Counted from the stretch's first letter, positions 9,286 to 59,331 are shown. The stretch: 64,000 bases of DNA from an uncultured Rhodobacteraceae bacterium (GCA_947487205.1 CANKVU010000004.1:110000-173999), one strand, 5' to 3'. Numbers and translations are program-made. Notes: generated by a model from the letters alone, not told the origin.

Positions 9286-11556
9286 ATGGCCCAGATCCCC
9301 TCCAAGGTCGAGATCCTGAACTGGATCGCGGACAATCCCACCAAGACGGCGAAGCGCGACATCGCCCGCGCCTTCGGGCTGAAGGGCGCCGACCGCATCG
9401 ACCTCAAGCGCCTGCTGAAGGAGCTGGAGGCCGAGGGCCACCTGGAAAAGCGCAAGAAGACCTATCGCGACCCCGACACCCTGCCCCCGGTCTCGGTCTG
9501 CGAGGTGGTGGGCCCCGATTCCGACGGCGAGCTGATCGCCCGGCCGATGGAATGGCGCGGCGACGGGCCCGAACCCCGCATCCTGATGGTCGAGCGGCAG
9601 AGCGACGGGGCGCTGGGGGCCGGCGACCGCGCGCTTTTGCGCCTGCAGAAGGTCCAGGGCGAGGACCACCATTACGAGGGCCGCCTGATCCGCAAGCTGA
9701 ACCGGACGGCGATGCGGATGCTGGGCATCTTCCGCGCCACCTCGGACGGCGGCCGGATCGTTCCGATCGACAAGGGCAACGACAAGGAATGGCAGGTCCG
9801 CGCCGCCGACGCGAACGGCGCGAAGGACGGCGAGCTGGTCGAGGCCGAGCGCGCCCCCAAGGACCGGCTGGGCCTGCCCCGCGCGCGCGTGCTGGAGCGC
9901 CTCGGCGACCCGACCGCGCCGAAATCCGTCTCCCTCATCGCGATCCGGCAGCACGGCATCCCCGACGCGTTTCCCGACGAGGCCGTGGTCGAGGCCGAGG
10001 CGGCCACGCCCGTGGACCTCGGCGACCGCACCGACCTGCGCGACCTGCCCCTGATCACCATCGACCCCTCGGACGCGCGCGATCACGACGACGCCGTCTG
10101 CGCCCTGCCCGACGACGATGCCGGCAACGAGGGCGGCCATGTGCTCTGGGTCGCCATCGCCGACGTGGCCCATTACGTCCGGCCCGGTTCCGCGCTCGAC
10201 CGCGAGGCCCGGACGCGCGGCAATTCCACCTACTTCCCCGACCGCGTCGTGCCGATGCTGCCCGAGGCGCTGTCGGCCGATCTCTGCTCGCTGGTCGAGG
10301 GGGAGGACCGCGCCTGCCTCGCCGTGCGCATGGTGCTCGACGCCCAGGGCAACAAGCTCTCGCACCGCTTCCACCGCGGCCTCATGCGCTCGCCCGCCTC
10401 GCTCTCCTACGAGGAGGCGCAGGCGGCCCAAGACGGCCACGCGTCGGAGAAGACCGCCGAGCTCGCCGACACGGTGATCGCTCCGCTCTTCGCCGCCTAC
10501 CACGCCCTCCGCGCCGCCCGCGCCCGCCGCCAGCCGCTGGAGCTCGACCTGCCCGAGCGCCGGATCGTGCTCTCGGAGGACGGCCGCGTGACCTCCATCG
10601 CCTTCACCGAACGCCTCGACGCCCACCGGCTGATCGAGGAATTCATGGTGCTGGCCAATGTCTGCGCCGCCGAGACCCTCTCGGCGAAGCGCCAGCCCCT
10701 CCTCTACCGCGTCCACGAGGAGCCCAGCCCCGAGAAGCTCGAGGCGCTGCGCGAGGTGGCCGAGGCGGCGGGCTTCCAGCTGCCGAAGGGGCAGGTCCTG
10801 CAGACCGCGCACCTCAATCGCCTGCTGGCCCAGGCCGGCGAGAGCGAGTTCGCCGAGCTCATCAACATGTCCACGCTCCGCGCCATGACCCAGGCCTATT
10901 ACGCGCCGCGCAACTTCTCCCATTTCGGGCTGGCGCTGCGCCAATACGCCCATTTCACCTCGCCGATCCGCCGCTACGCCGACCTGATCGTGCACCGCGC
11001 GCTGATCACCGCCCATGGCTGGGGCCCCGACCCGAAGGCCGACGGCCTCTCCCCCGCCGACGAGGAGATGCTGGAGGAGACGGCCGAGGCGATCTCGGAC
11101 ACCGAGCGCCGCTCCATGGTGGCCGAGCGCGACACCACCGACCGCTACCTCGCCGCCTATCTCTCCGAGCGGGTGGGGGCCGAGATGACCGGCCGCATCG
11201 CCGGCGTGCAGCGCTTCGGCCTCTTCGTGAAGCTCGACGAGAGCGGCGCCGACGGTCTCGTCCCCGTCCGCGCGCTCGGCGGCGAGTTCTTCCATTACGA
11301 CGGCGACAGCCAGACCCTGATGGGCGCCGATTCGGGCCGCGTCATCGGGCTCGGCCAGCGCGTCACCGTGCGCATCGCCGAGGCGGTGCCGGTCACCGGC
11401 GGCCTCGTCCTCGACCTTCTGGAGGTGGAGGGCGACCGGGTGCCGCCGGGCCGCTCGCGGGCGCGGCGCGGCCCCCCGCCGCGCCGCAAGAAGGGCAAGG
11501 AGAAGGCCCGCGCCAAGGCCCGCGAGCGCAAGGTGACCCGCACCCGCCGCGGCTGA
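9286..11556 (+). CDS. rnr: Ribonuclease R
   Basis: 756 aa. It has an RNB catalytic domain (ITIDPSDARDHDDAV, YFPDRVVPMLPE), an S1 domain, and a Lys/Arg-rich C-terminal tail. Confidence 0.93.
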   Translation: MAQIPSKVEILNWIADNPTKTAKRDIARAFGLKGADRIDLKRLLKELEAEGHLEKRKKTYRDPDTLPPVSVCEVVGPDSDGELIARPMEWRGDGPEPRILMVERQSDGALGAGDRALLRLQKVQGEDHHYEGRLIRKLNRTAMRMLGIFRATSDGGRIVPIDKGNDKEWQVRAADANGAKDGELVEAERAPKDRLGLPRARVLERLGDPTAPKSVSLIAIRQHGIPDAFPDEAVVEAEAATPVDLGDRTDLRDLPLITIDPSDARDHDDAVCALPDDDAGNEGGHVLWVAIADVAHYVRPGSALDREARTRGNSTYFPDRVVPMLPEALSADLCSLVEGEDRACLAVRMVLDAQGNKLSHRFHRGLMRSPASLSYEEAQAAQDGHASEKTAELADTVIAPLFAAYHALRAARARRQPLELDLPERRIVLSEDGRVTSIAFTERLDAHRLIEEFMVLANVCAAETLSAKRQPLLYRVHEEPSPEKLEALREVAEAAGFQLPKGQVLQTAHLNRLLAQAGESEFAELINMSTLRAMTQAYYAPRNFSHFGLALRQYAHFTSPIRRYADLIVHRALITAHGWGPDPKADGLSPADEEMLEETAEAISDTERRSMVAERDTTDRYLAAYLSERVGAEMTGRIAGVQRFGLFVKLDESGADGLVPVRALGGEFFHYDGDSQTLMGADSGRVIGLGQRVTVRIAEAVPVTGGLVLDLLEVEGDRVPPGRSRARRGPPPRRKKGKEKARAKARERKVTRTRRG

Positions 11557-11557
11557 C

Positions 11558-11626
11558 CGCCCCCGCCCCGTCCGAGCGCCCCTGCCCCGTCCGAGCGCCC
11601 CCGCCCCGTCCGAGCGCCCCCGCCCC
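11558..11626. repeat. Tandem repeat, 19-bp unit x ~3.6 (cgcccc[c/t]gccccgtccgag)
   Basis: Read directly. There are three full contiguous units with one C/T difference, plus a 12-nt partial unit. The array starts right after the rnr stop, and the unit length is not a multiple of 3. Confidence 0.85.
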
Positions 11627-11752
11627 TTCACCCTTTTTGCAAATACCCAAGGCCGGCGGCCGGCCAGGCGGGGCGCACGCACGCACGGCGCACCTTGACG
11701 GCCGCCCGGCCCGGGGCCAGTGCTGGGCACGATCCCTTCCCCCGGAGGCCCC

Positions 11753-12352
11753 ATGCCGGACGCCGCAGACGCCCTTCTCGTCATCGACATGCAGGTCGAC
11801 TTCCTGCCCGGCGGCGCGCTCGCCGTGCCGCAGGGCGACGCGCTCGTGCCCGGCATCAACACGCTCATGGCCGGGTTCGGCGCGGTCATCCTGACCCAGG
11901 ACTGGCATCCCGCGGGCCATTCCTCCTTCGCCAGCCGGTACGCCGACAGGCGCCCCTTCGACAGCGTGGAGATGCCCTACGGCCCGCAGGTGCTCTGGCC
12001 CGACCATTGCGTGCAGGGCACGCCCGGCGCGGCCTTCGCCCCGGGCCTTCGCACCGATGGCGACCTCATCCTGCGCAAGGGGTTCCGCCCCGGGATCGAC
12101 AGCTATTCGGCCTTCTTCGAGAACGACCGCGCGACTCCCACCGGGCTCGAGGGCTATCTCAGGACCCGCGGCATCGAGCGGCTGACGCTCGTCGGGCTGG
12201 CCTTCGATTTCTGCGTCGGGTTCTCGGCCCTCGACGCCGCCGCGCTCGGCTTCGAGGTGACGGTGCGGCGCGACCTCTGCCGCGCCATCGACATGGACGG
12301 CTCCGAGGCCGAGGCCGCGCGGGCGATGGACGCGGCCGGCGTGCGGCTCTGA
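11753..12352 (+). CDS. pncA: Nicotinamidase/pyrazinamidase (isochorismatase family)
   Basis: 199 aa from the internal Met of ORF 11720..12352. Motifs include ALLVIDMQVDFLPGGALAV, TQDWHP and a C-terminal catalytic Cys region (FDFCV). Confidence 0.8.
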   Translation: MPDAADALLVIDMQVDFLPGGALAVPQGDALVPGINTLMAGFGAVILTQDWHPAGHSSFASRYADRRPFDSVEMPYGPQVLWPDHCVQGTPGAAFAPGLRTDGDLILRKGFRPGIDSYSAFFENDRATPTGLEGYLRTRGIERLTLVGLAFDFCVGFSALDAAALGFEVTVRRDLCRAIDMDGSEAEAARAMDAAGVRL

Positions 12353-14019: not shown

Positions 14020-14095
14020 TGGTGAGCCGGCAGGGGCTCGAACCCTGGACCTACTGATTAAAAGTCAGTTGCTCTACCAACTGAGCTACCGGCTC
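14020..14095 (-). tRNA. tRNA-Lys (anticodon UUU)
   Basis: The reverse complement folds as a 76-nt cloverleaf. The acceptor stem is GAGCCGG/CCGGCTC, the D-arm is AGCTCAGTTGGTAGAGC, the anticodon loop is CTTTTAA and the T-arm is CAGGGTTCGAGCCCTG. CCA is encoded. Confidence 0.93.
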
Positions 14096-23134: not shown

Positions 23135-24265
23135 ATGCCGCTTCCCCGATCCCCCCGGCTGGCCGTCGCCGCCATCTTCGCGCTGAACGGGGGCCTCTTC
23201 GGGGTCTGGGCCTCGCGCATCCCTGCCTTCGTGCGCCGGTTCGACCTGACGGAGGAGCGCCTGGCGCTCCTGCTCCTGTGCATCGCGGGGGGCGCGATCC
23301 TGGCCTTCCAGGCGGCCGGCCGGCTGTCGGACCGCCACGGCGCCGACTGGCTCGGCCGGCGGGCCATCGCGCTCTACCTCCTGGCGTTCCTGGCGCTGCC
23401 GCTCTGGCCCAACGTATGGCTGCTGGCGGCGGGGCTGGCGCTTTTCGGGGCGACATACGGCGCCGCCGACGTGGCCATGAACGCCTGGGCGGCCGAGGTG
23501 GAACGGGCGGCGGGGCGGCCGATCATGTCGTCGTTCCACGCCATGTATTCGCTGGCCGCGGGCCTCGGCGCGGGCAGCGGCTGGATCGCGGTCGCGCTCT
23601 CGGCCCCGCCGGGGCTGCATTTCTGGGTCGCGGGCCTGGCCGCCGGGGCCGCGACGGCGGCGCTGGCCACCGCCCCCTGGACCGCGACCACCAGCGTCGA
23701 GGACGGCCCCGCGATCGCCCTGCCCCGCGGCCCGCTGATCCTCGTCGGGCTGATCGGCTTCGCCTCGGCGGTCGGAGAGGGGGCGATGGCGGATTGGTCG
23801 GCGGTGTTCCTCGTCGAGGTGACGGGCACGACCGAGGCGCGCGCGGCGCTGGGCTTTGCCGCCTTCTCCACCACCATGGTCGTCCTGCGCCTGGTGGGCG
23901 ACCGGGTCCTGGCCCGGATCGGCGCCGTCGCGGCGCTGCGCCTGAGCGGCCTGGCCGCCGCGGCGGGGATCGCCTGCCTGGTCGCGGCGCCGGGCCTGGG
24001 GCTCGCGCTCGCGGGCTACGCGCTGCTGGGGATGGGCTTCGCCGTGGTCTTTCCCGTCATCGTCACCCGCGCGGCGGCCGAACCGGGGGTGCCGGCGGGC
24101 CGCGCCATTGCGGGCGTCGCGACGCTGGGCTATGGCGGCATGCTCTTCGGCCCGGCCCTGATCGGCGGGATCGCGGCGCTGACCTCCCTGCCCGCCGCCT
24201 TCGGCCTGATCGGGGCGCTGGGCCTGCTGATGTCGGCGCTGGCACCGGCCGTGCGGCGCCCGTGA
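23135..24265 (+). CDS. MFS transporter
   Basis: 376 aa with about 12 predicted TM helices and an MFS-like loop motif (GRLSDRHG). Confidence 0.7.
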   Translation: MPLPRSPRLAVAAIFALNGGLFGVWASRIPAFVRRFDLTEERLALLLLCIAGGAILAFQAAGRLSDRHGADWLGRRAIALYLLAFLALPLWPNVWLLAAGLALFGATYGAADVAMNAWAAEVERAAGRPIMSSFHAMYSLAAGLGAGSGWIAVALSAPPGLHFWVAGLAAGAATAALATAPWTATTSVEDGPAIALPRGPLILVGLIGFASAVGEGAMADWSAVFLVEVTGTTEARAALGFAAFSTTMVVLRLVGDRVLARIGAVAALRLSGLAAAAGIACLVAAPGLGLALAGYALLGMGFAVVFPVIVTRAAAEPGVPAGRAIAGVATLGYGGMLFGPALIGGIAALTSLPAAFGLIGALGLLMSALAPAVRRP

Positions 24266-24329
24266 CGGTTGCCCCCGCCGGGTGGCCCTGACAAGATCCG
24301 CCGAACCCCAGACGAGGACCGGAGCAGCC

Positions 24330-26279
24330 ATGGCCGACGACCTTCTCAAAGGCGGCAAGGAGCCTGCCTACGACGCCTCCTCCATCGAGGTGCTGGAGGG
24401 GCTGGAGCCGGTCCGCAAGCGCCCCGGCATGTATATCGGCGGCACCGACGAGCGGGCGCTGCACCACCTGGTGGCCGAGGTGCTCGACAATTCCATGGAC
24501 GAGGCGGTGGCCGGCCACGCCAACCGCATCGAGGTGGAGCTGCACGCCGACGGGTCCTGCACGGTGCGCGACAACGGCCGCGGCATTCCCACCGACCCGC
24601 ACCCGAAATTCCCCGACAAGTCGGCGCTGGAGGTGATCCTGTGCACGCTCCACGCGGGCGGCAAGTTCTCGGGCAAGGCCTACCAGACCTCGGGCGGCCT
24701 GCATGGCGTCGGCATCTCGGTCGTCAACGCGCTGTCGGACCGGCTGCGCGTCGAGGTGGCGCGCGACCGCAAGCTGGTGGCGCAGGATTTCGCCCGCGGC
24801 ACGCCGCAGGGCCCGGTCCACGACGCGGGCCAGGCGCCGAACCGGCGCGGCACCTCCGTCACCTTCCACCCCGACGCCGAGATCTTCGGCAAGCTGGCGC
24901 TGAAACCCGCGCGCCTGCTGCAGATGGTGCGCTCCAAGGCCTATCTCTTCTCGGGCGTCGAGATCCGCTGGAAGAGCGCCCAGGACGACGGCGAGACGCC
25001 GCGGGAGGCGACGTTCCACTTCCCCGGGGGCCTCTCGGACTACCTCAAGGAAACGCTGGGGAATGCGGCGACCTATGCCGACGCCCCCTTCGCGGGCTCG
25101 GTCGAGTTCCGCGACGCGCCGGGCAAGGTGGAATGGGCGATCAACTGGACGCCCGCGCGCGACGGCTTTCTGCAAAGCTACTGCAACACGGTCCCCACGC
25201 CCGAGGGCGGCACCCACGAGGCGGGGTTCTGGGCCGCGATCCTCAAGGGGATCCGGGCGCATGGCGAGCGCGCGAACGTCCGCAAGGCGGCCAACATCAC
25301 CCGCGAGGACCTGACCGCGGGGGGCTCCGCGCTGGTGTCGTGCTTCATCGCCGATCCCGAATTCGTGGGCCAGACCAAGGACCGGCTGGCCACCGCCGCC
25401 GCCGCCAAGCTGGTGGAGAATGCCGTGCGCGACCGGTTCGACACCTGGCTCGCCTCCGACACGAAATCGGCCGGGGCGATCCTCGACTTCCTCGTCCTGC
25501 GGGCCGAGGAACGCCTGAAGCGCCGCCAGGAGAAGGAGACGCAGCGCAAGTCGGCGACCAAGAAGCTGCGCCTGCCCGGCAAGCTGGTCGATTGCTCGGT
25601 CAAGACCCGCGACGGCACCGAGCTGTTCATCGTCGAGGGCGATTCGGCCGGCGGCTCGGCCAAGATGGCGCGCATGCGCGAGACGCAGGCCCTGCTGCCG
25701 CTCAGGGGCAAGATCCTGAACGTGCTCGGCGCCGCCTCCTCCAAGCTGGGCCAGAACCAGGAGATCAACGACCTCTGCCAGGCGCTTGGCGTCGGCATGG
25801 GCACCAAGTTCAACGTCGAGGACCTGCGCTACGACCGCGTCATCATCATGACCGACGCCGACGTGGACGGGGCGCATATCGCCTCGCTCCTGATGACGTT
25901 CTTCTACGCCCAGATGCGGCCGCTGATCGACGCGGGCCACCTCTACCTCGCCTGCCCGCCGCTCTACCGGCTGACCCAAGGGGCGCACCGCGTCTATGCG
26001 CTGGACGAGGCCGAGAAGGAGGCCTGGATGAAGAAGGGCCTGGGCGGCAAGGGCAAGATCGACGTGTCGCGCTTCAAGGGCCTGGGCGAGATGGACGCCA
26101 AGGACCTGAAGGAGACGACGATGAACCCCAAGACCCGCAAGCTGATCCGCGTCCGCATCGTCGACGAGGCGCCGGGAGAGACGGGCGACCTGGTCGAGCG
26201 GCTGATGGGCAAGAAGCCGGAACTGCGCTTCGAGTACATCTCGCAGAACGCGAAGTTCGTAGAGGAGTTGGATGTTTAA
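24330..26279 (+). CDS. parE: DNA topoisomerase IV subunit B
   Basis: 649 aa from the internal ATG of ORF 24282..26279. It has a GHKL ATPase domain (EVLDNSMDE, GGLHGVG), a Toprim domain (ELFIVEGDSAGGSA, IMTDADVDGAHI) and a PLRGKILNV motif. Its length and lack of a GyrB-type insertion favour ParE over GyrB. The last 7 codons switch to rare A/T-rich codons (see findings). Confidence 0.88.
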   Translation: MADDLLKGGKEPAYDASSIEVLEGLEPVRKRPGMYIGGTDERALHHLVAEVLDNSMDEAVAGHANRIEVELHADGSCTVRDNGRGIPTDPHPKFPDKSALEVILCTLHAGGKFSGKAYQTSGGLHGVGISVVNALSDRLRVEVARDRKLVAQDFARGTPQGPVHDAGQAPNRRGTSVTFHPDAEIFGKLALKPARLLQMVRSKAYLFSGVEIRWKSAQDDGETPREATFHFPGGLSDYLKETLGNAATYADAPFAGSVEFRDAPGKVEWAINWTPARDGFLQSYCNTVPTPEGGTHEAGFWAAILKGIRAHGERANVRKAANITREDLTAGGSALVSCFIADPEFVGQTKDRLATAAAAKLVENAVRDRFDTWLASDTKSAGAILDFLVLRAEERLKRRQEKETQRKSATKKLRLPGKLVDCSVKTRDGTELFIVEGDSAGGSAKMARMRETQALLPLRGKILNVLGAASSKLGQNQEINDLCQALGVGMGTKFNVEDLRYDRVIIMTDADVDGAHIASLLMTFFYAQMRPLIDAGHLYLACPPLYRLTQGAHRVYALDEAEKEAWMKKGLGGKGKIDVSRFKGLGEMDAKDLKETTMNPKTRKLIRVRIVDEAPGETGDLVERLMGKKPELRFEYISQNAKFVEELDV

Positions 26280-26283
26280 AAGA

Positions 26284-26312
26284 TTGCCGACCCAATAGGC
26301 TCGTTATATTCT
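26284..26312 (+). promoter_or_regulatory. Possible sigma70-like promoter (TTGCCG-N17-TATTCT) giving a near-leaderless DUF3800 mRNA
   Basis: The hexamers were read directly. The -10 element ends 6 nt before the ATG at 26319. No Shine-Dalgarno-like purine run is present in that gap. Confidence 0.3.
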
Positions 26313-26318
26313 CTTATC

Positions 26319-27110
26319 ATGACTTATTCTTACAAAGTGTATATTGATGAGTCTGGGGACGATGGTATTGCGAACTTCCGCCAGCCAGGTAGCGGAGGCG
26401 GCGCTAGCCACTGGTTGGTTATCGGAGCATGTATTGTAAGGGCTAATCGGGATCTGGAACTTGTTGCGGCCCGAGATAAAATCAAAGAGGAATGCAAACC
26501 GAAGACCAAAGGCCGATCTATTCATTTTAAGGATCTCAACCACAGCCAGAGAAGACGAGCGTGCCAAATAATCTCTGAGCAGCCACTCCGATTTTCAGCA
26601 GTTCTTGGCTTGAAGAATACTCCTAAAGCAACGGCTTTCACTGATAAGAACCAGCTATATTTTTATCTTACTCGCTACCTTCTAGAGAGGGTTTCTTGGC
26701 TCTGTCGTGATCTGCGAAAGCGGGTGCCAGAAGGAAATGGGAAGGCCCAAATAATTTTCTCACGTAGAGGAGGAATGAGTTACGATGCTTTTAAGTCATA
26801 TCTACGCAATTTGCAGGAAAGAGATGACGTCAAAATTCATTGGCCTGCTATCGATATTGAAGCAGTAGATGCCCAAGATCATTCCAGGCTAGCGGGCTTA
26901 CAAATTTCTGACTGTGGAACAAGCGCTATAGCTGCTATGATTGAGCCAGATCGTTACGGAAATGTAGAAGGTGTATATGCGGAAGAACTGGCCCAAAAAA
27001 TATATTGCAGAAGTGAAAATTACTTCAGCTATGGTCTAAAGATGCTGCCGAACATCGATGAGGTTCGACTTTCGGATCAGCAATCAAAAACCTTACAGAG
27101 ATTTAGGTAG
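26319..27110 (+). CDS. DUF3800 domain-containing protein
   Basis: 263 aa. The N-terminus has the DUF3800 hallmark YIDESGDDG (D10/E11). There is a mid-protein IHFKDL motif (H69) and a C-terminal LQISDCG motif (Q195/D198). The gene is AT-rich with a TAG stop, unlike all its neighbours. Confidence 0.75.
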   Translation: MTYSYKVYIDESGDDGIANFRQPGSGGGASHWLVIGACIVRANRDLELVAARDKIKEECKPKTKGRSIHFKDLNHSQRRRACQIISEQPLRFSAVLGLKNTPKATAFTDKNQLYFYLTRYLLERVSWLCRDLRKRVPEGNGKAQIIFSRRGGMSYDAFKSYLRNLQERDDVKIHWPAIDIEAVDAQDHSRLAGLQISDCGTSAIAAMIEPDRYGNVEGVYAEELAQKIYCRSENYFSYGLKMLPNIDEVRLSDQQSKTLQRFR

Positions 27111-27227
27111 GGTAGCCCCCCGGGCCATAATTGCATTTCTGCCTGCGGTCGTTAGACCACTTTGGCTAGTTCCGGCGCTTGACTACCCTGAGGCCAATAT
27201 GGCCCGAACTACGGCATACTGCAAGAG

Positions 27228-27629
27228 TCAAGTATATTTTCTAGAGACGCATACTTTAAAGCGCTCATGGAAACTTCCTACCCCCCATCGATACACCCGC
27301 CCACCCCAGCGCTCCTTCTCCGTATCCAACACCCCCGGCACCCGGCCTTGGGGGACCGCCTCCAGGAAGGCGCGGCCGGGGGCGACCTTCTCGCCGATGG
27401 GGAGGCAGTTCCAGGTCTCGCCCCAGATTGCGGGCAGTTGGACTGGGCTCGGCGGGTACTCCGCCCGGCGGCGGAGGGCGGCGATCGGGGCGTCGGTCGT
27501 CTCATGCCCGGTCGGCGCCCGGCGGAGTTCCGGTGCCGCGACGGCGTCGCAGGCAATCGCAAAGCGCGGATCGGGCGCCCTTTCCCCCGCAGGTGGTGCG
27601 AAACGGCCACGCGCCGAAAGTCGGCACAC
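27228..27629 (-). CDS. Hypothetical protein, possibly 3'-truncated or chimeric at the islet border
   Basis: 133-codon ORF with a GTG start. Codons from about 27295 to 27600 show native G/C-ending bias (…PAIWGETWNCLPIGEKVAPGRAFLEAVPQGRVPGV…). The last ~20 codons (…GVGSFHERFKVCVSRKYT*) are AT-rich islet sequence. I recognised no family. Confidence 0.3.
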   Translation of the reverse strand: MCRLSARGRFAPPAGERAPDPRFAIACDAVAAPELRRAPTGHETTDAPIAALRRRAEYPPSPVQLPAIWGETWNCLPIGEKVAPGRAFLEAVPQGRVPGVLDTEKERWGGRVYRWGVGSFHERFKVCVSRKYT

Positions 27630-27723
27630 GTCAAGATTGCCAAGGCCGGGTTAATTGCCCTAAGGTAAGGATACGCAAGTACCGACGGGCCTGACCGCCC
27701 GGCGGGTTTCTCCCTGAAGGACT

Positions 27724-27751
27724 GGCCGCGCCGCCCGGCGTGGCCGTTTTT
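27724..27751 (+). terminator. Plus-strand intrinsic terminator with no annotated plus-strand gene upstream
   Basis: A 9-bp stem (ggccgcgcc / ggcgtggcc, one G.U pair) has loop gccc and is followed by gttttt. On the minus strand the G.U pair becomes a C.A mismatch and no U-tract follows. Confidence 0.5.
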
Positions 27752-56470: not shown

Positions 56471-57093
56471 GCGTCTTGGTCCTTTCGATCGGGAAAGATC
56501 TGCCGCGCGGCGGCGATCCTGAGCGCGCCCGTCACCATGCAAAGCGCGGCGAAGGCATAGGCCAGCGGCGCGAAGGCCCCGGGAAACAGGCACAGGACCA
56601 CGAAGAACAGGATCGTCTCGGTCCCTTCGAGGAGCCCGTTCGAGAAATAGAGCGTCTTCTCGCCGCGCGCGGCGGTGGTCATGCGCCGCCGCTCGGCCAG
56701 GATCGCATAGCCCAGAAAGCTCGTGCCGTTGAAATAGAAGCTGGTCAGCAGCACCGCCCCCGCGATGCCGTTGGCGTCGGGATCGGCCACCACGAAGGCC
56801 AGCGGCACCACGCCGTAGAACAGGAAATCCGCCGCGATATCGACATAGCCGCCGAAATCGGTCTTCTGCGTGGCCCGCGCCACCGCCCCGTCGAGCCCGT
56901 CGGCCAGCCGCGAGGCCAGCAGCGCGACCAGCGCGGCGCCGAACGCCTCCGCCGCGATCAGCCCCGCCGAGACGAGGCCCAGCGCCAGCCCGGCGGCGGT
57001 GACGGCGTTCGCGCCGACCCCGCGCCGCGCCAGCCCGGCGCCGATCCGGTTCAGCGGCGGATCGATCAGCCTTCGGGACAGCGGGTCGAGCAA
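56467..57093 (-). CDS. CDP-alcohol phosphatidyltransferase family protein (YnjF-like)
   Basis: 208 aa with a TTG start. The family motif is present (DGLDGAVAR…D…D), with multiple TM helices. It overlaps the SBP gene start by 4 nt. Confidence 0.78.
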   Translation of the reverse strand: MLDPLSRRLIDPPLNRIGAGLARRGVGANAVTAAGLALGLVSAGLIAAEAFGAALVALLASRLADGLDGAVARATQKTDFGGYVDIAADFLFYGVVPLAFVVADPDANGIAGAVLLTSFYFNGTSFLGYAILAERRRMTTAARGEKTLYFSNGLLEGTETILFFVVLCLFPGAFAPLAYAFAALCMVTGALRIAAARQIFPDRKDQDA

Positions 57094-57178
57094 CGGGATA
57101 CCTCCGGGGTTCCCGCCGTTCTGACCCAGGCCGCGGCGCCCCGCAATCGGGGGTGTCGAAGTTTTGACCGCGCCCCGT

Positions 57179-57514
57179 TCAGGCCCGGCGTTCGAGCCGC
57201 CGGCGCGCGCCGCCGATCTCGGTGCAGTGCCCGGCGGCCGAATAGGTCTGCGTGGTCACGCCGCCCGCCAGCGCGCGGACCACCCGCTCGGCCGCCCGCG
57301 CGCCGTCGCGCGCCGCCGCCAGGAGCGGCGCGTTGCGCTCCGCCGCCCGGCGGATCGCCGCCAGGATCTCGGCCTCGGCGCCGTCGCGCTCCAGCGCCTC
57401 GGCCAGTTCGCTCTTGGGCGCCAGAAGCGCCGCGGCGGCGGTCACGTCGCCGGCGCGCAGCAGCGCGCGCTCCCGTTCGAGAAGCCGCAGAAGGCTCTGT
57501 GCGGTGCGGCTCAT
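57179..57514 (-). CDS. FlgN-like flagellar chaperone (hypothetical)
   Basis: 111 aa from the internal ATG of ORF 57179..58915. It is all-helical and Leu/Ala/Arg/Glu-rich (LLRLLERERALLRAGDV…), and it overlaps the rod-binding gene by 4 nt. The family call is tentative. Confidence 0.45.
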   Translation of the reverse strand: MSRTAQSLLRLLERERALLRAGDVTAAAALLAPKSELAEALERDGAEAEILAAIRRAAERNAPLLAAARDGARAAERVVRALAGGVTTQTYSAAGHCTEIGGARRRLERRA

Positions 57515-57774
57515 TCGTCGTACTTCGCCATCTGGTGGAACAATTGCTCGGCCAGGCCGATCCCCCCGGCCTCCACCATGGTGCGGGCCTGTTCCTCGCG
57601 CATCAGCGAGGCGAATTGCGCCTCGCCCTCGCCGCCCCCGAAGGGGCCGGCCATCGCGTCCAGTCCCGCGCCCTTCAGCATCTCGGACAGGAACGCCGCC
57701 TCGAGCTTCTTGGCCGCGTCGTACATCGCCATCTGGCGGGGCGTCTGGATCGAGGCAATCTCCGCGATCTGCAT
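57511..57774 (-). CDS. Rod-binding protein (FlgJ N-terminal domain-like)
   Basis: 87 aa from the internal ATG of ORF 57511..59133. The Rod_binding block is AAKKLEAAFLSEMLKGAG…FASLMREEQARTMVEAGGIGLAEQL. Confidence 0.7.
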   Translation of the reverse strand: MQIAEIASIQTPRQMAMYDAAKKLEAAFLSEMLKGAGLDAMAGPFGGGEGEAQFASLMREEQARTMVEAGGIGLAEQLFHQMAKYDE

Positions 57775-57826
57775 CTGGTCCTCCGGGGGTTCGGGCAGGA
57801 TGTTTCCGGCACGATCCGCGATTCCC

Positions 57827-57841
57827 GTAAAGGATTGGTAA
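57827..57841. promoter_or_regulatory. GTAA-N7-GTAA element in the divergent flgJ-like/fliK promoter region
   Basis: gtaaaggattggtaa was read directly. It overlaps the 9-mer TTGGTAAGC, which also occurs upstream of flhA at 39457-39465. Confidence 0.2.
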
Positions 57842-57885
57842 GCCTTCGCTGGTTGTTTCGGGGACGAGTTTCCCGGAGCGACGCG

Positions 57886-59331
57886 ATGATTCCCTCGATC
57901 TCTTCCCCGTCCGCCGACCCCGCGACGCCCGGCGCGCGCCTGGCCCCGGCCCGCGGCGCGGAAACCGGCGCCTTCGGCCGGCTGGTGGGCCCCGACCGCG
58001 CGAGCGGCCCGGGGCGCGCCGCCGATCCCGGCCCCGCCGCCGAGGCCGGGCCGGACGCCGCCGCCGACCCCGGAACCGAGACGGCCGGGACGGCGGAGGC
58101 GCGAACCGGCGACGCGGCGGCCCCGCAAGAGACCCCGGACGCGCCGGCCGAGCATGGCGGCGAGGGGGAGAGCGACACCGATCTGGCCCCCGATCTCGCC
58201 CCCGATCTCGACGTGATCGCGGCCACCGCCGACGAGATCGCCCGCGCCGCGGCGGAGGCCGAGACCCCCGCCGAAACCCCCGATGGCCACGCCGCCGAAG
58301 ACGCCGAAGACGCCGAGGGGGACGGCGCCGCCGAAAACGCCGAGGAAGACGGCGCCGCCGATCCCGACGCCCCCGACGCTCCCGCCGCCGAGGACGCCGC
58401 GCGCGCCCCCGCCGCGCCGTTGGCCGCCCCCGCCGCGCCGTCCGGCCCCGGCGACGCGCCCAAAGGGGGCGACCCGGCCACCCTGGCCGCCGCCGCGCCC
58501 CGCCCCGACGCGGCCCGCGTCGAGGGCCCGGCCGGGGCGGTGCCCGCTCCGGGCCGCTCCGGGCCGTCCGGCCCCGAGGCCGCCGCGGCGATCCCCGGCC
58601 CCGCCGGCGCGGCGCTCGCGCGGCTGGGCGAGGGCGCGCGCCACGCGGCGCGCGACCGCGACGAGGCCCGCCGCGACGCCCCCGCGATCGCGCCGAGGGA
58701 GGCCGCCGCCCCATCCCTGGCCGACGGCCGCGCGGCCCCGCCCGCGCCCGTCGGCCCCGCCGCCTCCCCCGGCCCCGCCCGGGCGGGCCAGACCCCGGCC
58801 GACGGGGCCGCGTCCGCCGCCCTGCCGGGTGCCCTGCCCGGCGCCGCCCCGGATGCGCCGGTGGCCGACTTCCTGTCCGCGTCCCCGGCCGCCGCCCCCG
58901 GCGGGACGGAGGCACGGGCGCCGGGCGCGCCGACCGCGACGGCCTTCGCCGCCGCGGCGGCGCCGCGCCAGATCGCCGAGGCGGTGGTCACGGCCCGGAG
59001 CGACCGGCTGGAGATCGCCCTCTCGCCCGAGGAACTCGGCCGCGTCCGGATCACGATCAGCCAGGGCGAATCGGGGCTCAGCGTCCATCTCGCCGCCGAT
59101 CGCAACGACACGATGGGCCTGCTGCGGCGCCACGCCGCCGATCTCGGCCGCGCCCTGGCCGAGATGGGGCTCGGATCGGCGGACATCGATTTCGGCGACC
59201 GCCCGGGCGAGCGCGCGCCGCGGGGCGGCGGACAGGCGGTAAGGCTCGGCCTGGCCGGCGAACCCGACACCCCCCTCGCCCCGGCCGGCCGCCCCGCGGC
59301 CCTGTCGGACCGCATGGATATCAGGATCTAG
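57886..59331 (+). CDS. fliK: Flagellar hook-length control protein FliK
   Basis: 481 aa from the internal ATG of ORF 56476..59331. A long Ala/Pro/Asp/Gly low-complexity ruler includes a perfect 12-bp direct duplication (gcccccgatctc x2, about 58190-58213). The C-terminal Flg_hook domain reads RLEIALSPEELGRVRITISQGESGLSVHLAADR. Confidence 0.75.
   Translation: MIPSISSPSADPATPGARLAPARGAETGAFGRLVGPDRASGPGRAADPGPAAEAGPDAAADPGTETAGTAEARTGDAAAPQETPDAPAEHGGEGESDTDLAPDLAPDLDVIAATADEIARAAAEAETPAETPDGHAAEDAEDAEGDGAAENAEEDGAADPDAPDAPAAEDAARAPAAPLAAPAAPSGPGDAPKGGDPATLAAAAPRPDAARVEGPAGAVPAPGRSGPSGPEAAAAIPGPAGAALARLGEGARHAARDRDEARRDAPAIAPREAAAPSLADGRAAPPAPVGPAASPGPARAGQTPADGAASAALPGALPGAAPDAPVADFLSASPAAAPGGTEARAPGAPTATAFAAAAAPRQIAEAVVTARSDRLEIALSPEELGRVRITISQGESGLSVHLAADRNDTMGLLRRHAADLGRALAEMGLGSADIDFGDRPGERAPRGGGQAVRLGLAGEPDTPLAPAGRPAALSDRMDIRI

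Follow-up and report, generated by a model that had tools for sequence, protein, structure and literature searches.

A DUF3800 gene and a convergent DUF3800-VII RNA form a stranded mobile cassette downstream of parE in an uncultured Rhodobacteraceae bacterium

In a 64,000-nucleotide (nt) stretch of DNA from an uncultured Rhodobacteraceae bacterium (GCA_947487205.1, CANKVU010000004.1:110000-173999), an AT-rich islet of about 1 kb lies downstream of parE and carries one protein gene, a member of the DUF3800 family. How did DNA of such composition come to reside there, does the gene work alone, and what may it do? An initial annotation of the locus regarded the islet as a single-gene insertion and suggested that its product acts as a standalone defence module. 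We analysed the whole stretch (referred to as the window; positions are counted from its first letter) together with homologous loci from other genomes, and the results identified the islet as the stranded copy of a mobile cassette with two components, a DUF3800 protein gene and a dedicated RNA, which have independent convergent promoters. The host belongs next to Palleronia in the Rhodobacterales, with 88-90% identity in ParE.

The islet was delimited at 26280..27280 by the GC profile, change-point analysis, its tetranucleotide composition and the end of similarity to relatives. Whereas the 64-kb window has a GC content of about 71%, that of the islet is 41-49%: in a 200-nt profile, values of 0.66-0.70 in the 3' part of parE drop to 0.41-0.49 (at about 26200-27200) and are back at 0.745 by 27300. 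The lowest 1-kb window starts at 26251, with a GC of 0.456 versus 0.718 +/- 0.033 in the remaining window (z = -7.8), and nowhere in the 64 kb outside the islet does GC fall below 0.58 over 300 nt. The islet kilobase is also the strongest tetranucleotide outlier of the window, and GC by codon position is 0.53/0.41/0.40 in the DUF3800 gene versus 0.67/0.45/0.94 in parE. These data bear out the compositionally foreign insertion that had been proposed. Its borders, first drawn at 26259-27290 with a GC content in the mid-40s %, were correct within about 20 nt; the left end took in the last 21 nt of parE, since the similarity of related genomes ends at the parE stop codon (about 26280), and the right end was set by change-point analysis at 27280, where GC is back at the host level. 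Within these borders there is a single open reading frame (ORF), intact, at 26319..27110 on the plus strand, encoding 263 amino acids (aa).

The second component of the cassette is encoded on the opposite strand. A structured small RNA of 82 nt, DUF3800-VII (27106..27187, minus strand), converges with the gene and was detected by the Rfam model RF02967 at 41.4 bits versus a gathering threshold of 36.2, covering the full model (1-90); the E value was 2.3e-6 in a 2.1-kb scan and 7.1e-5 over the whole window, and the gathering threshold was passed in both. The structured core spans 27111-27187 and folds into five helices, and the 3' helix strand ends at 27111, abutting the TAG stop codon of the gene (27108-27110). 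For comparison, 80 loci with relatives of the protein were collected from species-representative genomes, yielding an RNA alignment of 54 distinct sequences, and our own covariance model scored the window's RNA at 88.5 bits. The consensus structure equals that of Rfam plus one bulged A, and 97.2% of the alignment cells are paired under it; bases that are conserved but unpaired include CA-G near position 8, GCAG at 42-45 and CAAU at 55-58. Compensatory changes were found in 18 of the 27 pairs, across all five helices; in a control in which the 3' partner was slid by 1-3 columns, at most 42% of the cells were paired, and the observed values were reached in 0 of 500 shuffles. G.U combinations filled 80 cells versus 8 for A.C, and therefore selection has acted on the minus-strand transcript. 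The minimum free energy fold of the window's RNA is identical to the consensus (-31.8 kcal/mol, z = -2.3), with a z of -0.4 for the plus strand.

Could such an RNA be a cis-antisense regulator or a bidirectional terminator, and the protein have a function of its own, for example the removal of RNA-DNA hybrids? The convergent layout, with the RNA 3' end touching the stop codon, would suit this role, and a U-rich tail (at least five U in the 13 nt past the outer helix) follows 38 of 67 RNA copies. However, five helices and many invariant unpaired bases exceed the needs of a terminator, the G.U asymmetry shows that the minus-strand transcript, rather than the mRNA, is under selection, and the patchy, horizontally spread distribution of the family is unlike that of a housekeeping enzyme. 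Nor does the window's copy have a U-tract: the Rfam consensus ends with uuuuUU, whereas the sequence that comes next here is CUACCUAAAUC, so that the tail is probably a consensus feature and not a defining one. We consider this explanation unlikely. In other respects, too, the window's RNA departs from DUF3800-VII as recorded in Rfam, with a bulged A in helix 3 and a shorter fourth hairpin in addition to the missing tail; it is a divergent alphaproteobacterial variant, scoring 41 bits versus 73-76 bits for the copies from betaproteobacterial plasmids and phages. The RNA lies on the other strand from the gene, as originally described for DUF3800-VII.

The gene-RNA pairing is obligate in the window's clade. 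With our covariance model, exactly one RNA was found per locus, directly after the gene and on the opposite strand, in all window-clade loci with downstream sequence, and no further RNA copies were present in 1.44 Mb. The arrangement was found in 69 loci. Two phage copies and one on a Burkholderia conjugative plasmid share it; in these the RNA lies within 6-9 nt of the stop codon and scores 50-76 bits. The description of the islet as a lone gene thus has to be abandoned, since a structured RNA with its own promoter occupies 27106-27187 and is the partner in all assessable window-clade loci. The islet does have just one protein gene, and DUF3800 is an accessory protein in some defence loci, which would favour a defence module whose product acts alone; yet with an RNA partner under its own promoter here and in all assessable homologous loci, that reading is barely credible.

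Promoter-like elements precede both components. That of the RNA (27196..27224, minus strand) consists of a -35 element TTGCAG (27224-27219), a 17-nt spacer and a -10 element CATATT (27201-27196) that ends 7-8 nt ahead of the RNA 5' end. The window's copy matches the sigma-70 consensus at 7 of 12 positions, and a sigma-70-type promoter scoring at least 8/12 at this geometry is present in 50 of 60 same-clade loci (83%) versus 1 of 176 controls (0.6%). The element upstream of the gene (26284..26312, plus strand), with a -35 TTGCCG (26284-26289), a 17-nt spacer and a -10 TATTCT (26307-26312), scores 8/12; at its geometry, at least 8/12 is reached in 25% of the homologous loci versus 0 of 186 control positions, with a clade mean of 6.5 versus 4.8 for controls. 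Given that the -10 element ends 6 nt before the ATG, which is separated from the parE stop codon by 41 nt, transcription would start at or next to the ATG and yield an mRNA that is leaderless, or nearly so, and lacks a Shine-Dalgarno sequence; a Shine-Dalgarno-like motif occurs in just 7 of 63 homologous loci. The self-contained promoter and near-leaderless start suggested earlier (TTGCCG-17-TATTCT-6-ATG) are therefore plausible. All these promoter calls rest on cross-genome geometry, and a generic promoter scan returned a single, unrelated site, which does not exceed the yield from shuffled sequences. Conservation of the region upstream of the gene is confounded, because transposon-borne copies of the cassette encode a divergent small ORF there. 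A pairing of the RNA with the 5' end of the leaderless mRNA, spotted by eye (AGUCAU/AUGACU), was dropped, as it shows no covariation between loci and falls inside helix 1.

The protein is a predicted metal-dependent nuclease of type-2 RNase H-like fold, as suggested by its Pfam match, orthologue alignment, structural modeling and purifying selection. It matches the Pfam profile PF12686 (DUF3800) at 41.5 bits versus a gathering cutoff of 21 (E = 2.7e-10), residues 7-205 corresponding to profile positions 2-147 of 149. The family call made from the sequence by eye was thus correct, and the literature agrees that no biochemical function has been assigned to the family. DUF3800 proteins are defined by an N-terminal DE and a C-terminal QxxD motif (PMC7736814). 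In an alignment of 35 orthologues, 51-81% identical, D10, E11, G13, D14, D15, G16, H69, F70, E123, R149, R150, D179, Q195, D198 and E209 are invariant. Of the DEDD catalytic tetrad known from type-2 RNases H, the DE pair is present, and the further invariant acids of the family are E123, D131, D179, D198, E209 and E217. Hence, of the motifs originally proposed, D10/E11, H69/F70 and Q195/D198 stand, but the D of HF-x-D is not conserved. The catalytic centre would be formed by D10/E11 with Q195/D198 and the neighbouring invariant acids. Purifying selection on the protein is strong, with identities by codon position of 0.79/0.92/0.40 to its closest homologue (81% identical; locus L086, from metagenome contigs). 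The subfamily is of modest size: among 1.84 billion representatives it counts 94 clusters at E <= 1e-30, or 914 when the threshold is relaxed to E <= 1e-3, and nearly all its members consist of one domain and are 250-280 aa long.

An AlphaFold2 model computed from the 35-sequence alignment attained a pLDDT of 94.2 and a pTM of 0.92. When it was compared with the PDB by Foldseek, the best 19 matches were all RNase HII, HIII or H2A, with a probability of 1.0 for nearly all, E values down to 2e-5, and TM-scores of 0.42-0.51 for the top matches (Bacillus RNase HIII, archaeal RNase HII and human RNase H2A). As in type-2 RNases H, the N-terminal D-E pair ends strand 1. A PDB sequence-profile search with the protein gave chance matches only and no RNase H. 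An RNase H-like fold for DUF3800 is consistent with published predictions, including that of PMC7736814, and a 'catalytic rearrangement' has been described by Altae-Tran et al.

An RNase H-fold enzyme with a dedicated RNA raises the possibility that the RNA is a guide or scaffold directing the enzyme to complementary nucleic acid. The transposon-encoded RNase H-fold nucleases TnpB and IscB with their omega RNAs provide a precedent, and the strict RNA-protein pairing, with different RNAs for different DUF3800 subfamilies, would agree with it. The 54 RNA sequences tell otherwise: variation is confined to hairpin loops of about 4-13 nt and a junction of 5 nt, all else being conserved or covarying within a helix, so there is no variable segment of guide length, and both RNA ends are fixed, one by the promoter and the other by the gene's stop codon. 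A guide function is, in our view, decidedly unlikely.

How the cassette moves was seen in other genomes. Transposase sequence of the IS1595 family adjoins the module in 16 of 63 loci, as 13 full-length genes and three truncated remnants; of the full-length genes, 11 are encoded in the opposite direction to the DUF3800 gene, about 100-300 nt past its stop codon, and the three remnants share this place and orientation. Six complete IS1595-family transposons of 2.45-3.24 kb, with a DDE_Tnp_IS1595 transposase, carry both the gene and the RNA. They have matching terminal inverted repeats of about 24 bp, starting GGCGATWNTATA, and perfect 8-bp target duplications: L001, 346-2922 (AAGGAAAA); L002 from Paracoccus lutimaris, 9473-11924 (TAAAAGTT); L029, 9196-11921 (TTTCATTT); L034, 8768-12004 (TTTTTTTT); L048, 8270-11010 (GCAAACCA); and L056, 9156-12035 (CGCCGCGC). 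A small acidic ORF of 49-60 aa with the motif SQLDRFKEAARELE-DDDE was also observed, divergent from the DUF3800 gene, the two starts being 12-20 nt apart in six elements (minus strand; L001 875-1024, L002 9840-9989, L008 207-356, L029 9806-9988, L034 9811-9984 and L056 9811-9981). Nearly all of the 13 loci in which it occurs also have IS1595 or remnants of it. The ORF was rejected as a third component, being limited to transposon-linked loci and absent from the window.

Unlike these six homologous loci, the window's copy has neither transposase nor inverted repeats nor duplication. No IS1595 transposase remnant was detected near the islet by tblastn, GGCGATWNTATA does not occur within 3.5 kb of it, no IS1595 target duplication was found at the window's copy, and terminal direct or inverted repeats flanking the islet were likewise not found. 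The window's single tRNA lies far away at 14023-14095. The searches for IS1595 and for repeats being negative and the tRNA distant, the initial annotation was right that no integrase, transposase, tRNA target or long flanking repeat accompanies the gene, with the provisos that other integrase and transposase families were not screened and that the islet has room for one ORF only. The islet is thus compositionally foreign and compact, and it has no mobility gene of its own; the absence of a mobile vehicle holds for the window, but elsewhere the family rides IS1595-family transposons. An IS1595 origin of the window's copy is therefore not something directly seen, and we infer from the other genomes that the copy was delivered by such a transposon, whose transposase then decayed while the cassette was kept. 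Elsewhere the pair moves as a passenger of IS1595-family transposons and on temperate phages and plasmids; at the parE site it would have lost its vehicle and then been inherited vertically.

Given this carriage, the module might serve the transposon alone, as a selfish stabiliser or regulator that controls transposition or punishes loss with no benefit to the host, the window's copy being a leftover. Its location inside complete transposons with target duplications in six genomes, the transposase or remnants next to 16 of 63 loci and the conserved small divergent ORF of the transposon versions all speak for this idea. However, the 47 clade loci (of 63) without any trace of a transposase still have both gene and RNA intact, with purifying selection at work, and the pair is also found in restriction-modification (R-M) operons, phages and plasmids that lack IS1595. 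Like the antisense or terminator role, this explanation appears improbable.

When the parE site was occupied can be gauged from relatives. In four related genomes the upstream synteny of MatE, epimerase, MFS and parE is kept, and DUF3800 is absent downstream of parE in all four. The gene is therefore accessory rather than core, which upholds its earlier interpretation as an acquisition. What follows parE differs in each of these genomes, one of which has two transposases. In the parE 3' flanks that were inspected (L081 8863-11894, L082 7950-9629 and L084 8065-9056), one genome has rve-type and DDE_Tnp_1 transposases, whereas the ORFs of the others are unrelated and match no Pfam family. These sequences make the DNA 3' of parE look like a hotspot at which insertion or replacement has recurred in the group. 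The homologue at L086 also lies directly downstream of parE, and its alignment with the window is continuous from parE to 27188, the RNA 5' end. Third-position identity in parE is 0.72 to the L086 organism versus 0.71-0.75 to the Palleronia genomes. Since the same site is occupied in a relative as diverged as the cassette-free Palleronia, the cassette is not a private recent insertion; most simply, it would be an old insertion that two lineages retained and that others lost or do not have. That the parE site was targeted twice, independently, is conceivable as well.

The gene's GC at third codon positions (GC3) stays at 0.40 in a genome with a GC3 of 0.94, though the insertion appears older than a genus-level split; in the L086 copy (673-1434) it is 0.60. 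Either the AT-richness has been selected, for instance for limited expression or silencing, or recombination has put another copy in its place. A GC content below that of the host is common in the family (70 of 80 loci, mean difference -0.106).

What, then, may the pair do? There is no obligate protein partner: when flanking ORFs were clustered, even the commonest neighbour family turned up at no more than 12 of the 80 loci. In a distant clade with the same RNA family (about 40% identity), R-M genes lie within three genes of the module in 9 of 19 loci, and in several of them the DUF3800 gene starts 6-15 nt after hsdM, overlaps hsdS or sits between hsdM and hsdS. Type I R-M operons are known to harbour restriction-linked ORFs such as PrrC and RloC. 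The distant-clade gene likewise follows hsdM or hsdS or lies between them, but the window's copy has no R-M genes nearby and belongs to another protein family. The family is rare on plasmids (four records) and in phages (three phages). In the P2-like Ralstonia phage RsoM1USA, the gene lies by int-attP at the genome end, and in Rhizobium phage RHph_TM3_3_3 it follows a CI-like repressor gene by 12 nt. From the literature, DUF3800 is known as the effector of type VII retrons (Mestre et al. 2020, PMC7736814) and as an accessory gene in some Cas12 and Cas13 loci (PMC10910872, PMC12669027), and a strain-specific DUF3800 gene of Legionella was scored essential by transposon sequencing (Tn-seq), as antitoxins are (10.1101/2020.10.01.323287). 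Placement in R-M and lysogeny loci, use by retrons and CRISPR systems and the essentiality in Legionella fit a toxin-antitoxin-like or abortive-infection module. As a separate observation, BstA-like abortive-infection proteins were the immediate neighbour in 3 of the 61 loci of the window's clade (best E = 5e-112 with the PADLOC model), with KilA-N domains in two.

The cassette resembles type III toxin-antitoxin systems (ToxIN, CptIN and TenpIN) at the conceptual level: both would consist of a nuclease and a small cis-encoded RNA, with no protein partner, and both are mobile and associated with defence. In type III systems, however, the RNA comes from a tandem repeat array that precedes the toxin gene on its own strand. 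Here a single structured RNA is encoded convergently, downstream of the gene, and a repeat search of 26150-27750 reported no tandem repeats. The type III toxin, moreover, has a ToxN/AbiQ fold and processes the RNA, as opposed to the RNase H fold predicted for the DUF3800 protein. Type VII retrons, which combine a reverse transcriptase, a noncoding RNA and a DUF3800 effector, share with the cassette the coupling of the same protein family to a structured nucleic acid. They differ in having the reverse transcriptase; the islet has one ORF, no reverse transcriptase adjoins it, and its RNA matches no retron family. Retron DUF3800 proteins also lack the Q of QxxD (PMC7736814), and Q195 is invariant here.

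Taken together, we propose that the cassette encodes an RNA-restrained nuclease acting as a toxin-antitoxin-like or abortive-infection/defence module, a function to which we assign a probability of roughly 0.5. The strict pairing, the fixed spacing and the dedication of a separate RNA to each DUF3800 subfamily point to specific RNA-protein recognition; the RNA would bind its cognate protein and control it, either as an inhibitor or as a sensor. A good RNA promoter, a leaderless mRNA with rare codons and the persistence of the pair after transposase decay fit a nuclease held in check by RNA. The protein would be made at low dosage from a leaderless mRNA with AT-rich codons that are rare in the host (GC3 of 0.40 versus 0.94), and an abundant RNA could then restrain this poorly translated nuclease. 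Such a pair would stabilise itself and its carrier, and it might protect against phages.

Several results weigh against this reading. Those on the enzyme concern its likeness to RNase HII: an hhalign comparison of the 35-sequence profile with E. coli RNase HII (query sequence verified against PDB 7uwe) gave a probability of 0.04. RNase HII has a DE-x-G-R-G motif, the GRG of which senses the 2'-OH at the RNA-DNA junction; here, the GRG after DE is replaced by GDDG (D10-E11-S-G13-D14-D15-G16), invariant in the family. Because the likeness is structural only, with a null profile comparison and GRG changed to GDDG, we regard the protein, on the strength of the model, as a nuclease with an RNase H fold rather than as an RNase HII. 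The protein matches none of the NCBIfam models and, in PADLOC-DB 2.0, no family at E <= 1. Its immediate neighbours in the window's clade (61 loci) are mostly unrelated housekeeping genes, the one recurring exception being the IS1595-family transposase, and the module is usually solitary; PADLOC matches among these neighbours are few, BstA three times and others once. The architecture, with a single-copy, convergent and downstream RNA, is unlike that of every established toxin-antitoxin type. The Legionella protein may come from another DUF3800 subfamily. Weinberg et al. 2017 (PMC5737381) offered no functional hypothesis for the DUF3800 RNAs, and no experiment is known to support any function of DUF3800 or its RNAs. 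The defence role suggested in the initial annotation is accordingly left as an inference, with R-M loci, lysogeny positions and the retron and CRISPR literature in its favour but no PADLOC match of the protein and housekeeping neighbours on the other side.

The gene-RNA pairing as such is already catalogued, in Pfam PF12686, Rfam RF02967 and Weinberg et al. 2017 (PMC5737381), who reported eleven unrelated candidate structured RNAs (DUF3800-I to -XI) beside DUF3800 genes, on either strand and on either side. In the searchable literature we found no mention of the RNA's own promoter, the leaderless gene, the carriage by IS1595 or the 100% co-occurrence; no paper there links DUF3800 with IS1595, and the literature on drum and skipping-rope RNAs and on PF12686 yielded nothing functional. 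Extending the RNA-restrained nuclease to the whole family is more tentative: DUF3800 proteins and their RNAs could possibly constitute a new class of RNA-controlled nucleases, in which a structured, single-copy RNA would be the antitoxin or sensor of an RNase H-fold effector. Such modules would differ in mechanism from toxin-antitoxin systems of types I and III, would hitch-hike on IS1595 transposons, temperate phages, plasmids and R-M operons, and would confer addiction or immunity of the abortive-infection type.

Around the cassette, whose neighbours are parE and an alpha/beta hydrolase, further features were recorded. Beyond the RNA promoter, an AT-rich tail at 27225..27280 (GC of 0.27-0.57 in 30-nt windows) is not alignable with L086, similarity ending at 27188. 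The islet does lie downstream of parE, as stated before, but the native ORF placed on its right lacks support: ORFs at 27228-27668 have a GC3 of 0.74-0.76 versus 0.93-0.94 in native genes, and none of them reaches the cutoff of a Pfam model or resembles sequences of the relatives. A native ORF in 27290-27690 found no support, given a sub-threshold DUF1413 match (17.3 versus 25 bits), no similarity to genes of the relatives and a non-native codon bias. This stretch, which lies between the islet and a SorX-like terminator, has a GC of 0.67-0.75 and three overlapping ORFs of 121-133 aa; it may have come with the cassette or be a decayed gene. The SorX-like element (27688-27751, plus strand; 26.9 bits with Rfam SorX, below the gathering threshold of 46.6) contains a strong intrinsic terminator, the stem of which (27723-27746) is followed by TTTTT. 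A 44-nt core of it, including CUCCCUGAAGGACUGGCC, is 89% identical in the Palleronia-like relative L084 (9115-9158), about 1.2 kb downstream of its parE, and the element may show where the variable region ancestrally ended on the right. The second tetranucleotide outlier of the window (56476-59331, especially 57988-58781) consists of GC-rich short tandem repeats with periods of 12-42 within a 951-aa ORF, probably a Pro/Ala-rich low-complexity protein region; this outlier, at about 57.7-59 kb, was rejected as islet-related since it is made of GC-rich low-complexity repeats in a long ORF. Long spurious ORFs overlap parE in other frames (24063-25988, minus strand, 641 aa; 24269-26347, plus strand, 692 aa), which is typical of a genome with a GC3 near 0.94 and calls for caution in ORF-based annotation of the window.

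The DUF3800 RNAs have been a puzzle since 2017, for nine years, with eleven unrelated RNA structures each paired with one protein family. The window's cassette presents this association in a near-minimal form: a leaderless gene and an 80-nt RNA, each with a promoter, in about 1 kb, and no other partner nearby. To it the comparison adds a conserved promoter for the RNA, obligate pairing, the lack of a third protein and carriage by active-looking IS1595 transposons, the pair persisting long after the transposase has decayed. If the protein is an RNA-regulated effector with an RNase H fold, this would explain why type VII retrons and some Cas12 and Cas13 loci have taken up the same domain; and if these pairs do form a new class of RNA-controlled nucleases, the 1-kb cassette downstream of parE would be its minimal natural example.

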